Source of the DNA: Escherichia phage altidsur
Direction: 5' to 3' (one strand)
DNA length: 42,197 nt
Sequence record: MN850568.1
Below are positions 9,576 to 13,092 of the stretch, piece after piece. The notes under the pieces were generated by a model. It had not been told where the DNA came from. It was given only the letters and a program-made list of their open reading frames with translations, and ran no database searches. Made by a program: the position numbers and the translations under genes. The first letter of the stretch is position 1; the number at the start of each line of letters is the position of its first letter.

Positions 9576-10111
9576 TGACTAACTTTGAAATCTGTATGCG
9601 GTTCACCGGGCTGGCAGAAGGCGGTTACGCCAACCTGCCCGGAGACACCGGAGGGGAAACGAATCATGGAATTAGTGACGCTCGTGATGGAAAGCTGGAT
9701 GGTAGAGCTTGCGGTGTCCCTACTGGGCTTGGCGGCACTATTTGTGTGCCTATCCGCAACCTCACCAAAGCGCAAGCCGAAGCAATCTATCGACGGGACT
9801 ACTACAGCCCCATCCGAGGTGACGAGCTTCACCCTGCGATTGCATGTGCCGTGTTCGACTACGGCGTTAACTCAGGTGTCTCCCGTGCGGCGAAAGCTCT
9901 ACAGCGGGTATGCGGCGTTGCACAAGACGGGGTTATTGGCCCTGCTACCGTGGCAGCAGCCAAACGTCTGGAACCTCACTCCGCAGCAGCAGCCATCTGT
10001 GACCTTCGTATTGCGTTCCTAAAGGCTTCTACAGCCCCGACAATCGTTCGGTATAGGGATGCCTTGGTAGCTCGTGCAAAACGCTGTAGCGACTACTGTG
10101 CGACGCTGTAG
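9575..10111 (+). CDS. Endolysin, GH108-type muramidase with C-terminal peptidoglycan-binding-like region, 178 aa
   Basis: N-terminal motif LAEGGYANLPGDTGGETNHGIS and downstream IYRRDYY match the GH108 signature (EGG...DPGG.T..GI...YxxDYW) read by eye; no N-terminal TM/SAR segment. Confidence 0.8.
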   Translation: MTNFEICMRFTGLAEGGYANLPGDTGGETNHGISDARDGKLDGRACGVPTGLGGTICVPIRNLTKAQAEAIYRRDYYSPIRGDELHPAIACAVFDYGVNSGVSRAAKALQRVCGVAQDGVIGPATVAAAKRLEPHSAAAAICDLRIAFLKASTAPTIVRYRDALVARAKRCSDYCATL

Positions 10112-10320
10112 GGGCTATCGAAAGCTGGAGCATTGAACAGGCCGTGGGGAGCAATACCCCCGGCTTGAAAATTGCATGTTTATAGTTGCCCCTCCCTCGA
10201 CCCAAATGACCGCGCGTACCCCCATGACGTGTGCGCGGATTAGCCTCGCGACGTGCGCGATATTGCCTCGCGTGTGCTGCGCGGCGCGTCAAGAGGATTG
10301 CCTGCGTGCGGTATAGCTCG

Positions 10321-10710
10321 TGCGTGTCGCGTTTCACTATCGCCGCGCGGTGCTGTCCTGCTGGCTGGCTGTGTGCCTGCTGTGTGGGCTATCGGTGGCG
10401 GTGTGGTGCTGTCCTATTGGGGACGCTCTGCGCTGGCTGCGTGGTGCTGCTGGCTGCGCGTGGTCGGTCGGGTATCTGTCTCTTTTCGTCGTGGTGTGTG
10501 GTGCTGGTGTGTAGCGGTGTGCGGCGTGGTGCTGCCGTCCTGCTGTGTGGTGTGCTGGTCTACTGTCTGCGCCTGCCAGCTCTGCGCGTCATGCTCTGCT
10601 ACTGTCTCTTACTGTCCTACTGCCTTCACTGTCTGCCGTCTGTCAGTCCTACGGTCTGCCATCCGTCATCCGTTCGGCGCTCGCTTGTTTCGGCTGCGCC
10701 GCGCTCGCTC
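10321..10710. other. A-depleted (G/T/C-only) strand-asymmetric tract; candidate genome-terminus / terminal-repeat-associated region
   Basis: By manual count roughly twenty A residues in ~390 nt on the + strand. Because every stop codon contains A, all three + frames stay open, which produces the overlapping Cys/Arg-rich ORFs in the track. Sits between the last late gene and the early promoters. Confidence 0.6.
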
Positions 10711-10730
10711 TGCGTATCTAGCGATACTAT

Positions 10731-10752
10731 ATCACTATAGACACTTTCATAA
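10731..10752 (-). promoter_or_regulatory. Copy of the 22-bp phage promoter-like motif ATGAAAGTGTCTATAGTGATAT, inverted; + strand reads ATATCACTATAGACACTTTCAT
   Basis: Reverse complement is identical over 22 bp to 31211-31232; contains the CTATAG core reminiscent of the CACTATAG core of T7/SP6-type promoters. Confidence 0.45.
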
Positions 10753-10757
10753 TTATC

Positions 10758-10856
10758 TAATGATTACAGTAACTTATAACCTATCTGATAACGGTATTCT
10801 ATCCAGTGTTATGATTATCTAATCAAACTTTAATCCTAATGATTACAGTAACTTAT
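10758..10856. repeat. AT-rich direct repeats (20-bp TAATGATTACAGTAACTTAT at 10758-10777 and 10837-10856, plus duplicated ATTATCTAA)
   Basis: Exact 20-bp duplication 79 bp apart, read directly, immediately downstream of the A-depleted tract and the inverted promoter-like motif. Confidence 0.6.
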
Positions 10857-10877
10857 CACTTTTCTTGAAAATAATAC

Positions 10878-10907
10878 TTGCCAATCTGTTTTGGTTTATG
10901 CTGTAAT
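10878..10907 (+). promoter_or_regulatory. Host sigma70-type promoter candidate (TTGCCA-N18-TGTAAT)
   Basis: -35-like TTGCCA at 10878-10883 and the same TATGCTGTAAT -10 box as the next two promoters. Confidence 0.35.
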
Positions 10908-10984
10908 TCATCTCGCCGGACAACACAGCGTTAACGTGTTGGACGGTGTAGGACGGTAACACTGCTCTTTAACAATCTGGTGTG

Positions 10985-11013
10985 TTGACAAGGCAAGCTC
11001 ACTATGCTGTAAT
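10985..11013 (+). promoter_or_regulatory. Host sigma70-type early promoter (TTGACA-N17-TGTAAT)
   Basis: Perfect -35 TTGACA at 10985-10990, 17-nt spacer, TATGCTGTAAT box; one of three identically spaced copies upstream of the early region. Confidence 0.55.
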
Positions 11014-11121
11014 GCTTCCACGTCAGCCAGCAAGCTAAACAGTCATTGATAAAGACGTTAAAACACACGTAGGCAAGCTGGTACGGTTTAACTATCTCAG
11101 AACGGGCGCTGATTAAATCGG

Positions 11122-11150
11122 TTGACAGGATGAAATGAGTATGCTGTAAT
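11122..11150 (+). promoter_or_regulatory. Host sigma70-type early promoter (TTGACA-N17-TGTAAT)
   Basis: TTGACA at 11122-11127, 17-nt spacer, TATGCTGTAAT box at 11140-11150. Confidence 0.55.
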
Positions 11151-11201
11151 GCACACCAGATTGACAGGGCAGCAAGCCAGTCAGTCAGAAGTAAAAAGTA
11201 G

Positions 11202-11230
11202 TTGACACGCTGAATACGATGTGATGTAAT
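11202..11230 (+). promoter_or_regulatory. Host sigma70-type early promoter (TTGACA-N17-TGTAAT)
   Basis: TTGACA at 11202-11207, 17-nt spacer, GATGTAAT box at 11223-11230. Confidence 0.5.
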
Positions 11231-11687
11231 CAGCACCGAGTTGAAAGGTTGCAAAACAACCTGCTCTGAGTGAACGTAAACTGGCCACGTAGTGTCACGG
11301 TCTCATGGGTATCCGGCGCAGCTAGGAACTGGTGAGAGGCATCGCTGAAAAGCAACGGTATTGCAACAATGCTAACGCCGTAGGGGTAGTGCCTGATGCA
11401 AGGGAACGGAGAAGCGCGATAGACACAGCGCAGTATCAGTAAAATCCCAAACGTCTTATAAGGCGCGGAGTGAAGCGGGTAGGTAGGCAAGCTGGTAACG
11501 GTGAGCCGGACTGCTGGAGGACTCCTGAGAGTGGATGCAGACAATATCCACGGCGCGAAATGGGCGGGGCGATTTTTCAGGGTAGTGAATCCGACAAGCC
11601 AATCAATGCCACTTAGTGCAACATGTACGGCGCGTCACAATGGGTTCACTATCCACCTGAAAATAGCCAACAACTGGAGAAATAACT

Positions 11688-12080
11688 ATGTACCGTATCT
11701 ATGCAAGCGCATATCGTCAGGGCAACGCTGAATGTGTTAATCTGGCGCTTCATTGCAAGGCACTGCGAACGGTGCAGGATATGTTCGGAGTGGTTCCGGT
11801 CACACTGACAGGCAAGTTCGACAATGCGTACGAGTTAAGCATGGTCTTTCCTGTCGATGGAATCTACGAAATCAGGCAGGCTGTTAAGCTGTTCTGTAAA
11901 GCATTCGAACAGGACTGCATCATGGTAGTGACCAAAGATGATGATGCAATCTTCATGGATTCACCATATCCGGGCAAGCCTGCTGGCAAGTTCGTCAGCA
12001 AGACTGAGGCCGAAATGGAAGCCGGGCAGCACACCGCTTGGACTTACGATGGTGAACAATTTTGGGTAGTGGAGGCGTAA
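11688..12080 (+). CDS. Early hypothetical protein, 130 aa
   Basis: First ORF after the ~450-nt leader; GGAGA RBS 8 nt upstream of the ATG. Confidence 0.55.
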   Translation: MYRIYASAYRQGNAECVNLALHCKALRTVQDMFGVVPVTLTGKFDNAYELSMVFPVDGIYEIRQAVKLFCKAFEQDCIMVVTKDDDAIFMDSPYPGKPAGKFVSKTEAEMEAGQHTAWTYDGEQFWVVEA

Positions 12081-12081
12081 C

Positions 12082-12156
12082 ATGTTTACCGCACTGTGTG
12101 TAGTAGCGGCGGCCTGCTGGGTCATTGACCAGCGACTGAGCCGTCGCCGTGGCTGA
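12082..12156 (+). CDS. Tiny hydrophobic peptide (24 aa, MFTALCVVAAACWVIDQRLSRRRG)
   Basis: ATG 1 nt after the upstream stop, with a strong GGAGG RBS 6 nt upstream; hydrophobic N-terminus with basic tail; not in the ORF track because of length. Confidence 0.3.
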   Translation: MFTALCVVAAACWVIDQRLSRRRG

Positions 12157-12217
12157 TAGCCTATAGCGTCCTGCGGGGCGCTATGTGAAATCAACCAACC
12201 TGACAAGGGGTACTACC

Positions 12218-12748
12218 ATGACAACTGCAATCAAATACACTAGCTTCAAAGACGCTGCCGCTCTGGACAAGGCCATTGAGTCTACCGTCAAGAAGGCGCA
12301 CTCACTCCGTAGCGACATTCAGAACGTTGCGGTCGGCATCATCCTGCACGCTTACCATCACGGCGACTACACTCGTGCTGAATCCTTCGTGAATCAGCTC
12401 GGTCAGGGTATCCGTGGTAAGGCGCTGGTAGACTGGTTCGTCAAGTTCGGCGGCCTGATTATCGGTGAGAACGGCGGGAAACAGGGCTTCATTGGCTGGC
12501 AGGGCGCTGAGTATATCAAGGCGAACATTGACACGGCCAAAGCCACTATGTGGTGGAGCCTGAAACCTGAGCAGGCGTTCGAAGGTTTCGACCTGCAAGA
12601 TGCGCTCGAAAAGCTGATTGCCAAAGCTGAGAAGGCGCTGAACAAGGCGAACGAACTGCGCCACGAAGGGAAGGACGAAGACGCGAACAAGGTTGTCGTT
12701 CCGCAGAACGTGCTGGATGCACTGCGCAAGGCTAAACAAGCTGCGTGA
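12218..12748 (+). CDS. Early hypothetical protein, 176 aa (Lys/Ala-rich C-terminus)
   Basis: ORF with AAGGGG RBS before the internal ATG at 12218; the track ORF begins 33 nt earlier at 12185. Confidence 0.6.
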   Translation: MTTAIKYTSFKDAAALDKAIESTVKKAHSLRSDIQNVAVGIILHAYHHGDYTRAESFVNQLGQGIRGKALVDWFVKFGGLIIGENGGKQGFIGWQGAEYIKANIDTAKATMWWSLKPEQAFEGFDLQDALEKLIAKAEKALNKANELRHEGKDEDANKVVVPQNVLDALRKAKQAA

Positions 12749-12755
12749 TTACTGA

Positions 12756-12778
12756 CAGGCCATTCACTGAGTGGCCTG
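12756..12778 (+). promoter_or_regulatory. Intergenic RNA hairpin (CAGGCC-loop-GGCCTG); candidate RNase III/processing or attenuation site
   Basis: 6-bp perfect inverted repeat with 11-nt loop between two early genes. Confidence 0.35.
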
Positions 12779-12813
12779 AATTGTAACCACACATCAACCC
12801 AAAGGGGCATAGC

Positions 12814-13092
12814 ATGACTTTTAAAGCTGTAGACACTCGCACCAAACCGCTGGCACACTCTTTCCCGGCAGCACTGATGGGAGGCCAGCTCACTGGCACC
12901 ATCGTAGCGACCATTGACGACACTGGCCGCATCGACATCAAGGAAGGCGCGGAGAACCTGCCGCACTTTGCTCAGAGCCGTGACATTCTGGACGAGTCCG
13001 GCGACTTCCTGTGGCTGGTCGATGAAGACCAAGGCACCGAATGGGATGGCACCGTTCGCTGGGGTCGTCAGGAAGACTTCGAAGTGGCATAA
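12814..13092 (+). CDS. Small acidic early protein, 92 aa
   Basis: ORF preceded by a hairpin and AAAGGGG RBS; Asp/Glu-rich with acidic C-terminus (EDFEVA). Confidence 0.6.
   Translation: MTFKAVDTRTKPLAHSFPAALMGGQLTGTIVATIDDTGRIDIKEGAENLPHFAQSRDILDESGDFLWLVDEDQGTEWDGTVRWGRQEDFEVA

Follow-up and report, generated by a model that had tools for sequence, protein, structure and literature searches.

In T7-like phages the early operon is transcribed by the host RNA polymerase (RNAP), and the earliest transcript arises when most of the genome has yet to enter the cell, so that whatever its 5′ end carries is the first to act. The leaders of pre-ribosomal RNA (pre-rRNA) operons combine tandem promoters with boxB-boxA-boxC antitermination and a leader–trailer helix that is cut by RNase III. 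In T7, the boxA sequence CGCTCTTTAACAATCTGG lies between promoter A3 and the R0.3 hairpin before gene 0.3 (PMC11863960). Candidate non-coding RNAs (ncRNAs) derived from 5′ untranslated regions (5′UTRs) have been reported by ONT-cappable-seq for phages including the phiKMV-like LUZ19 (Putzeys et al., PMC10914365). Here we describe the leader of the first early message of Escherichia phage altidsur (sequence record MN850568.1; the window, i.e. the whole stretch analysed, comprises 42,197 nucleotides, nt), which is located between tandem early promoters and a gene for S-adenosylmethionine (SAM) lyase. Our findings show that this leader is one large folded RNA of the plus strand with at least 14 helices, not a few chance hairpins. 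We class it as an early leader of the T7 type, expanded to a large and ornate RNA that represents a new RNA family.

The altidsur genome is that of a T7-like coliphage of the genus Bonnellvirus (Stentvirinae, Autographiviridae/Autoscriptoviridae), and its record is circularly permuted. Between positions 10700 and 12200 it is 98.7% identical to Escherichia phage aldrigsur, and over the leader alone 99.8%. In the record of phage J8-65, which begins at the true left end, the counterpart of the leader region is found at 1008-1467, after a 259-bp terminal repeat. This placement indicates that the leader occupies the site where T7-like phages have their host-polymerase early promoters.

The locus resembles the T7 early leader in its tandem host-type promoters near the left end, a boxA, a long irregular hairpin 5′ of the first Shine–Dalgarno (SD) sequence and an anti-restriction gene in first position. 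However, the T7 leader from A3 to gene 0.3 is 175 nt long and consists essentially of boxA and one hairpin, whereas the altidsur leader has ~450 nt and at least 14 conserved helices. Also unlike in T7, the altidsur boxA is upstream of the second promoter and outside the final leader, homology to the T7 leader is found neither at the sequence level nor with covariance models, and RNase III cleavage is only predicted. With the leaders of pre-rRNA operons the locus shares an rrn-type boxA with a boxC-like CUGGUGUGU, a long, untranslated, purine-rich and structured transcript and a predicted helix closing its 5′ and 3′ ends. It differs from them in that it has no homologue in E. coli genomes, that its closing helix is invariant and that it precedes an mRNA rather than an rRNA. 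The size of several hundred nt, the many covarying helices, the GNRA loops and the conserved junctions recall the large RNAs GOLLD, ROOL, OLE and raiA, of which GOLLD and ROOL are phage-associated. The altidsur RNA, in contrast, has no Rfam match, is attached as a 5′ leader to one particular gene and is known from only ~20 genomes of enterobacterial T7-like lytic phages. Like HK022 put, it is a structured RNA just downstream of early promoters in a phage dependent on host RNAP, but the resemblance is positional only, and the RNA is far larger and more modular than put (~70 nt, two stem-loops). Conserved structured RNAs from phage 5′UTRs are also represented by the candidates mentioned above (PMC10914365) and by bulk predictions from IMG/VR (PMC10690425). 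Those candidates differ in being mostly shorter than 250 nt, defined by premature termination and from Pseudomonas phages, and none is described for Stentvirinae.

We gathered the leaders of 15 Bonnellvirus records, of Pantoea phage LIMEzero (genus Waewaevirus) and of three IMG/VR contigs (L019, L024 and L031). The record of Cronobacter phage RZ4 (LC778449.1) has ends that overlap by ~120 nt within the leader, an assembly redundancy, and its leader looks interrupted unless the duplicate is removed. Inspection of a MAFFT alignment by eye revealed successive helices in which both strands changed together. RNAalifold predicted 113 pairs for 13 Bonnellvirus leaders, 15 of them with compensatory changes, and 111 pairs for three LIMEzero-type leaders, of which 17 were compensated. 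The part that could be aligned in both genera (17 leaders) contained 46 pairs, namely those of H7, H8, the closing helix of the central domain and the terminal hairpin (Table 1). All cells (771/771) were standard pairs, nine pairs were changed on both sides, and 18 extra pair types were present. None of 500 shuffles matched any of these measures, and pairing dropped to 33–41% when the partner was slid by one to three columns. For the 5′ half, the 13 Bonnellvirus leaders yielded 54 pairs with 672/672 cells paired and eight pairs changed on both sides (slid controls: 24–41%). The independent events are fewer than the cells, because the changes in the 5′ half follow a single split into two haplotypes and because the shared structures were partly derived from the same sequences that were counted. 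Complete pairing over 100 pairs, combined with the co-deletion of a base pair and the insertion or deletion of a whole hairpin, is the pattern of a real RNA structure. The structural claim, comprising fold and conservation, is very secure.

A first-pass annotation of the altidsur sequence had proposed a long structured leader at this place, citing several perfect short hairpins, two of them by sequence, and had named the lack of a stable RNA and of structural conservation among relatives as grounds for refuting it. On conservation the outcome is decisive: the extensive covariation in two genera supports a structured leader strongly and carries it beyond what had been proposed. Both hairpins are present, one of them (AGGTTG-CAAAA-CAACCT, at 11246-11262) a single base away from where it had been placed and the other, GTGGAT(G)-loop-(T)ATCCAC, at 11531-11551. 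As 6-bp hairpins they are unremarkable by themselves; in relatives, each remains paired through double substitutions (GGUUG/CAACC vs GGAUG/CAUCC and GUGGAU/AUCCAC vs GUGAGU/ACUCAC). The gap of about 450 nt from the last early promoter to the first start codon was likewise correctly estimated, with 457 nt between the end of the last −10 hexamer (11230) and the ATG at 11688.

The strand of the RNA can be read from its pairs. Compared with shuffles, the fold of the leader had a z score of −2.24 on the plus strand and of +0.25 on the minus strand, and ~150 cells are G:U pairs on the plus strand that would be A:C mismatches on the opposite one. Since all genes and promoters also lie on the plus strand, the parsimonious interpretation is an RNA made rightward by the host polymerase. 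No open reading frame (ORF) on either strand was conserved in frame, start or presence among the 19 leaders, and the LIMEzero clade lacks all of them; indels of 1, 5 and 20–25 nt break them. The ORF at 11501-11731 had been described as looking spurious and as the only one in the region. Like the others it is not conserved, but it is not the only one, as several ORFs of 34–104 amino acids occur on both strands. A small ATG ORF (MGGAIFQ...) was rejected as a gene: it is present only in some Bonnellvirus genomes, has no SD sequence and is absent from the LIMEzero clade.

The features of the locus are collected in Table 1. The leader transcript is purine-rich, with 30% G, 29.5% A, 22% C and 18% U. 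Several of its helices vary in sequence while they keep their pairing. The stems of H8 occur as GGGA/UCCC vs GGUA/UACC, GUCA/UGAC or GCCA/UGGC, and as A:U vs C:G, and in the LIMEzero clade one H8 base pair has been lost from both strands (GCGC/GCGC to GCC/GGC). The GAA/AGUA internal loop of H8 appears to match the sarcin-ricin/loop-E signature. The helix closing the central domain appears as U:G, U:A and C:G across the genera, and the tip loop of arm A is GUAA, GCAA, GAAA or GUGA depending on the phage, i.e. GNRA in all. Three phages, BHUENT7, Lidtsur and RZ4, carry an unrelated module of the same outline in place of the central domain, with GCAU/AUGC as the inner stem. The terminal hairpin is built, from its base, of GGC/GCC, an 8-bp stem (UUUUCAGG/CCUGAAAA), a 3-nt bulge, an 11-bp stem, the invariant 5-nt bulge ACAAU, two 3-bp stems and a variable tip. 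Its double changes are at pairs 105:211, 110:207, 123:191 and 124:190. It ends 8 nt before GGAG and 20 nt before the ATG of the SAM-lyase gene, and the SD junction AACUGGAGA is invariant across both genera.

Table 1. Coordinates (window numbering) of the predicted early promoters, leader RNA elements and first gene of phage altidsur. Helices are named H1 to H8.
Feature	Position	Strand	Remarks
Upstream promoter copy P1	10878-10907	+	Putative
rrn-type boxA UGCUCUUUAACAAUCUGG	10963-10980	+	Between P1 and P2; carried only by P1 transcripts
Upstream promoter copy P2	10985-11013	+	Putative
Upstream promoter copy P3	11122-11150	+	Putative
P4, last early host-type promoter	11202-11230	+	Putative; TTGACA 11202-11207, 17-nt spacer, TGTAAT 11225-11230
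Whole structured leader RNA	11237-11687	+	From predicted transcription start site (TSS) region to the base before ATG
Predicted long-range helix	11237-11243 with 11671-11677	+	CGAGUUG with CAACUGG; RNAalifold; overlaps first GG of SD
H1, AGGUUG-CAAAA-CAACCU	11246-11262	+	Pair 19:29 A:U in 7 and U:A in 6 sequences
H2	11263-11295	+	9 pairs, 100% paired; one-sided change only (U:G/U:A), support weaker than for other helices
H3	11301-11338	+	15 pairs, five changed on both sides; 7:6 split of two haplotypes
Multi-helix junction with H4-H7	11339-11399	+	H4 closing stem GCAUC/GAUGC; covarying pairs 112:166 and 116:121
H5, GCU-GAAA-AGC	11344-11353	+	GNRA loop
H6, optional hairpin	11355-11381	+	Missing as a block in 5/13 relatives
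H7, GGG-GUAGYG-CCY	11383-11394	+	Kept in both genera; pair 3:14 seen as G:C, G:U and A:U
H8	11402-11448	+	Three stacked stems; internal loop GAA/AGUA; conserved apical loop GAUAGACRCA
Central three-way domain	11452-11566	+	Closing helix CGUCU (11452-11456) with GGGCG (11562-11566); inner stem GCGC/GCGC
Arm A of central domain	11467-11525	+	Tip GCUG-GNRA-CGGU at 11491-11502
Arm B of central domain	11531-11551	+	Second hairpin of the first-pass annotation; covaries
Terminal irregular hairpin	11568-11668	+	~100 nt; 31 pairs, every cell paired in 17 sequences
SD sequence and ATG of first gene	11676-11690	+	GGAG 11676-11679; ATG 11688-11690
First early gene, SAM lyase (anti-restriction)	11688-12080	+	Pfam PF23780, E 1e-27

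A direct repeat, GTAGGCAAGCTGGTA(A)CGGT, was observed at 11069-11087 and 11483-11502. Its right-hand copy belongs to the central domain's GNRA-tipped hairpin, and the near-copy on the left lies between P2 and P3. Several short motifs of the leader were considered by eye as separate elements and rejected. A T-loop or tRNA mimic in GGGUUCACUAUCC proved to be a helix strand by covariation, and LIMEzero has GGGUGAAC instead. A pseudoknot of the GAUAGACG loop with CGUCU is not kept in the LIMEzero clade. An intrinsic terminator at GGGCGAUUUUU lacks an upstream complement, and its U-run is the strand of a covarying stem. Copies of the repeated GGUAG, viewed as a protein site, stand in differing structural contexts.

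We used two covariance models to delimit the family: R1, which represents the 3′ domain (terminal hairpin and SD sequence), and R2, which represents the core of H7 and H8. In the window, the R2 match at 11381-11462 scored 108 bits and the R1 match at 11557-11690 scored 163 bits; the scores in the LIMEzero clade were 83–143 bits. With R1, scores of 98–163 bits were obtained, and these by family members only. According to BLAST and both models, the element occurs once per genome and in Stentvirinae only, always in the order core, terminal hairpin, SD sequence and SAM-lyase gene. Neither model gave significant matches in T7, Era103, Minorna, P7285, four other Drulisvirus genomes, Kotilavirus, PPWS2 and ~40 unrelated viral contigs. 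No match was obtained by blastn with 10850-11700 as the query and 5,426 genomes of E. coli as the database, by exact 19-mer scanning of 100,044 species genomes or by searching Joint Genome Institute (JGI) metagenomes with a 20-base pattern. The negative metagenome result agrees with the remark that bonnellviruses are absent from metagenomes (PMC7552041). Scans of IMG/VR added only the three contigs named above as relatives, and a scan with the core motif retrieved 36 loci that, apart from known members, were all due to chance.

Known RNA families were also compared. At E≤10, none of the 4227 covariance models of Rfam 15, which include riboswitches, ribosomal protein leaders, GOLLD, ROOL, OLE, raiA, 6S, CsrB and ribozymes, produced a family match in the window at 10000-13000 and 11200-11700 or in LIMEzero at 700-1900. 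The only matches were partial ones on the wrong strand that are due to chance (20.4 bits vs a gathering score of 45; models of small nucleolar RNAs, snoRNAs, with E about 2). ARAGORN found no transfer RNA (tRNA) or transfer-messenger RNA (tmRNA) genes in 10500-12200, and a sequence scan revealed no terminator-like site in or near the leader and no internal promoter. We found no description of this leader RNA in searchable papers on Bonnellvirus, LIMEzero and J8-65 or in work on phage ncRNAs and structured RNAs, a comparison to which the 10,006 unnamed candidates of PMC10690425 do not belong. By sequence and model comparison, these searches show a new RNA family that is so far confined to Stentvirinae (Bonnellvirus and Waewaevirus) and placed between tandem early promoters and the SAM-lyase gene.

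Between altidsur and the LIMEzero clade, nucleotide identity was 76–79% in the core of H7 and H8 and 69–76% in the 3′ domain. The SAM lyase shares 26% protein identity with ORF1 of LIMEzero, and the product of the second gene 57%. The leader fold is thus under stronger selection than the SAM lyase next to it. In the records of relatives the SAM-lyase gene is called 'anti-restriction SAMase', and it follows the leader in every relative.

The four putative promoters share the pattern TTGACA/TTGCCA-N17/18-TGnTGTAAT. This pattern (29 nt) is kept in 15 relatives; LIMEzero has a single copy, and in its GenBank record this site, like two others, is labelled a putative promoter. All four promoters of altidsur have an odd −10 hexamer, TGTAAT, with a G in place of the normally invariant A at −11, which is preceded by TGn and separated by 17–18 nt from a perfect or near-perfect −35 hexamer, and these properties are kept in two genera. 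In P4, the spacer sequence GCUGA can pair with UCAGC just past the −10 hexamer (11209-11235), and phage Lidtsur has altered both sides (GCCGA/UCGGC), a single covariation event. The P4 region may therefore fold as a hairpin in transcripts started at the upstream promoters. For the region between the promoters as a whole (10908-11236), structure was weakly supported (covariation term −0.41, four double changes, helices that include promoter hexamers), and we do not claim one.

The boxA between P1 and P2 matches the extended boxA of rrn leaders, CACugcucuuuaacaau, at 17/17 positions (PMC2724277), and a perfect rrn boxA is at 10963-10975, outside the leader. An identical GCTCTTTAACAATCTGG is shared with the T7 boxA after A3. 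The boxA is kept in most relatives and has the form CGCUCUUUA(U)ACAAUCUGG in the LIMEzero clade. At 10958-10984, boxA (CACUGCUCUUUAACAAU) is followed by the boxC-like CUGGUGUGU. Together these features suggest rrn-type antitermination by Nus factors during early transcription, which would extend to genome entry. Within the leader, the only sequence similar to the boxA of rrn (UGCUCUUUA) or lambda (CGCUCUUA) is the degenerate UGCUCUGAGUGAA at 11262-11274, which matches UGCUCU and then diverges and which forms the 5′ strand of H2.

A long non-coding left end is also present in Drulisvirus (Slopekvirinae), where ~300 nt before the first gene of phage Minorna (1264-1549) are conserved in 250 phage records. 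The fold of the Minorna leader had a z score of −2.16 compared with shuffles. For five diverse members, 67 pairs were predicted, 14 of them compensatory, and the last element of the structure is again a long hairpin that immediately precedes the SD sequence. With the covariance models, no homology between the Drulisvirus leader and the Stentvirinae RNA was detectable. Structured early leaders may therefore be an undescribed trait of the phiKMV-like family in general. If the Drulisvirus leader is the same phenomenon, the findings bear on hundreds of genomes of therapeutic Klebsiella phages, in which the region is now annotated as empty.

As to the function of the altidsur leader, we tentatively favour, at somewhat less than even confidence, a cis-acting platform for the folding, processing and stability of the first early message. 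A role in cis is preferred because the element always adjoins the same gene with an invariant junction. The compact fold would keep a long untranslated stretch from Rho loading and RNase attack; avoidance of Rho is suggested by the G-rich and C-poor composition given above. Transcripts from P1 would additionally bring the rrn-type boxA. By analogy, the terminal hairpin would be the counterpart of R0.3 in T7 and a candidate site of the RNase III type, and cleavage or stacking at this site would determine where the SAM-lyase mRNA begins, how stable it is and how readily ribosomes reach it. After processing, the ~400 nt further upstream would persist as a stable and abundant RNA with a hairpin capping its 3′ end. 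The hairpin has an R0.3-like geometry (8 + 11 + 3 + 3 bp with 3-nt and 5-nt bulges) and an R0.3-like location, between the last host promoter and the SD sequence of a first gene that is anti-restriction. Further support comes from the order of elements shared with T7 and from the Drulisvirus leader with its long, covarying end hairpin. An RNase III site as in T7 had been suggested in the first-pass annotation. Position and geometry make this plausible for the terminal hairpin only, whereas homology to the T7 leader was not found with R1 and cleavage is a prediction. The invariant GUAGYG, GAUAGACRCA, ACAAU and GAA/AGUA and the two GNRA loops imply that the RNA adopts a specific tertiary structure or binds a partner.

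Several points weigh against the cis-acting platform. The transcript, its TSS, its processing and its stability are all predicted from the sequence. The four early promoters are themselves deduced, with predicted TSSs only; their −10 hexamer is atypical, and a consensus scan rejects all four because of the G at −11. The long-range helix between the 5′ and 3′ ends was paired in 13/13 sequences but did not vary in any of them, and since an invariant helix offers no covariation it is unproven. A search of T7 1-2000 with R1 at E≤10 returned nothing, so that homology between the terminal hairpin and the T7 leader is not detectable. In the consensus folds no alternative pairing that would sequester the SD sequence was found; SD is unpaired in both folds save for one or two G, and its predicted accessibility was similar with and without the upstream RNA. 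Finally, the conserved unpaired nucleotides and the modules resembling tertiary motifs far exceed what such a platform needs, and a leader of 450 nt delays a time-critical gene, which suggests an additional function.

A rival explanation is a trans-acting immediate-early ncRNA: the processed ~400-nt leader, made from four strong promoters, would bind or titrate a host protein at a time when there is no phage protein yet. Its candidate targets would include defence sensors or nucleases, enzymes of RNA decay and global RNA-binding proteins. We consider this explanation unlikely on balance, though deserving of serious thought. The invariant loops and junctions, like the pair of GNRA loops and the sarcin-ricin-like loop, are suggestive of a specific three-dimensional fold or binding surface, the RNA is more conserved than the adjoining protein, it is the first RNA made upon entry, and its central domain is exchanged between lineages like a specificity module. 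Candidate ncRNAs from 5′UTRs have, moreover, been reported in other phages (PMC10914365). However, the leader is never found apart from the start of the SAM-lyase gene and its SD junction is invariant, both of which argue for a role in cis, and it contains no internal terminator. No target, motif enrichment or host homologue was found in the E. coli genome search and the 19-mer scan, and GGA motifs were not enriched by eye; a CsrA sponge was rejected on the latter ground. The small RNA proposed in the first-pass annotation was not established, given that there is neither a terminator-like site nor an internal promoter, so that a stable small RNA could arise only by processing. The anti-defence RNA proposed alongside it is pure speculation. 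A bolder form of the idea is unlikely and more conjectural: the leader would be an autonomous, abundant, ornate RNA that is freed at the terminal hairpin and acts in trans as an RNA-only factor of counter-defence or host takeover in the first minute of infection, perhaps by decoying or inhibiting a nuclease, an enzyme of RNA decay or an immune sensor, with the swappable central domain setting the target. The Drulisvirus leaders would then mark a widespread and undescribed class of immediate-early RNAs in Autoscriptoviridae.

The leader might instead act in cis on the host polymerase, as an RNA for processive antitermination or RNAP modification (put- or EAR-like, or an extended rrn-type Nus site) that improves read-through of the early region and speeds up genome entry. 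All early promoters lie directly upstream of it, as does a perfect boxA of the rrn type, a hairpin followed by the boxA-like UGCUCUGAGUGAA stands at its extreme 5′ end, and the early operon relies on host RNAP. We regard this as quite improbable: known put and boxA elements are shorter than 100 nt, which leaves 450 nt unexplained, the boxA-like sequence deviates at CUUUA, which is critical, and takes part in the pairing of H2, and the 5′ region of the LIMEzero clade has no boxA-like sequence. Very unlikely, in our view, is a riboswitch-like sensor of a metabolite or ion (for example SAM or its products methylthioadenosine and homoserine lactone) that tunes translation of the SAM lyase. The fixed link to one gene class in two genera, the conserved junction nucleotides and a predicted helix that contacts the SD sequence are consistent with a sensor, but no riboswitch of Rfam matched even at E≤10, conserved mutually exclusive pairings, terminators or covarying SD-sequestering helices were not found, and the leader is several times larger than known SAM aptamers. 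A role in replication, as a folded, G-rich pre-primer that forms an R-loop at a left-end origin in the manner of ColE1 RNA II, is hardly credible. The transcript does have a strong purine skew (GC skew up to +0.27) and a G-run, GGGCGGGGCG, and the origin of these phages is not known. The G-run, however, is base-paired within a covarying helix, nothing ties the leader to replication genes, and T7-type origins use phage-RNAP promoters, which are located elsewhere. The reading without any functional RNA, in which chance hairpins, DNA-level signals or a missed small protein gene account for the region, is effectively refuted. Single 6-bp hairpins are common by chance, and close kinship within Bonnellvirus inflates shuffle tests; but 100 pairs are fully paired, 17 of them double-changed, a base pair is co-deleted, two genera agree, slid controls fall to 24–41% paired, the G:U pairs are strand-specific and no ORF is conserved.

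Stentvirinae phages of E. coli, Pantoea and Enterobacter thus spend ~1% of their genome on a large RNA fold that belongs to no described family. Its role is directly testable by standard genetics, because E. coli K-12 is a host for J8-65 and for the Danish 'sur' phages.

Three further observations concern the surroundings of the leader. To its left, ~490 nt at 10231-10720 are nearly without A on the plus strand (AT skew to −0.8, GC 62–65%); this stretch is to the right of the endolysin gene, spans the position of the J8-65 terminal repeat and is followed by 31% GC at 10720-10900. Downstream, an unannotated ORF of 24 codons, MFTALCVVAAACWVIDQRLSRRRG, at 12082-12156 overlaps the stop codon of the SAM-lyase gene and has a GGAGG SD sequence 5 nt upstream; with its hydrophobic N-terminus and basic tail, the predicted product resembles a small membrane peptide. 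Between genes 1 and 2, at 12160-12191, the 32-nt sequence CCTATAGCGTCCTGCGGGGCGCTATGTGAAAT forms a near-perfect hairpin of 9–10 bp (one G:U) with a UGCG loop and occurs as a single copy in the window. It is 100% identical in distant phages, namely in Drulisvirus with E. coli or Klebsiella as host and in a phage of Acinetobacter. The hairpin could serve RNase III processing or transcript stability, or the sequence could be a mobile element with a regulatory role.

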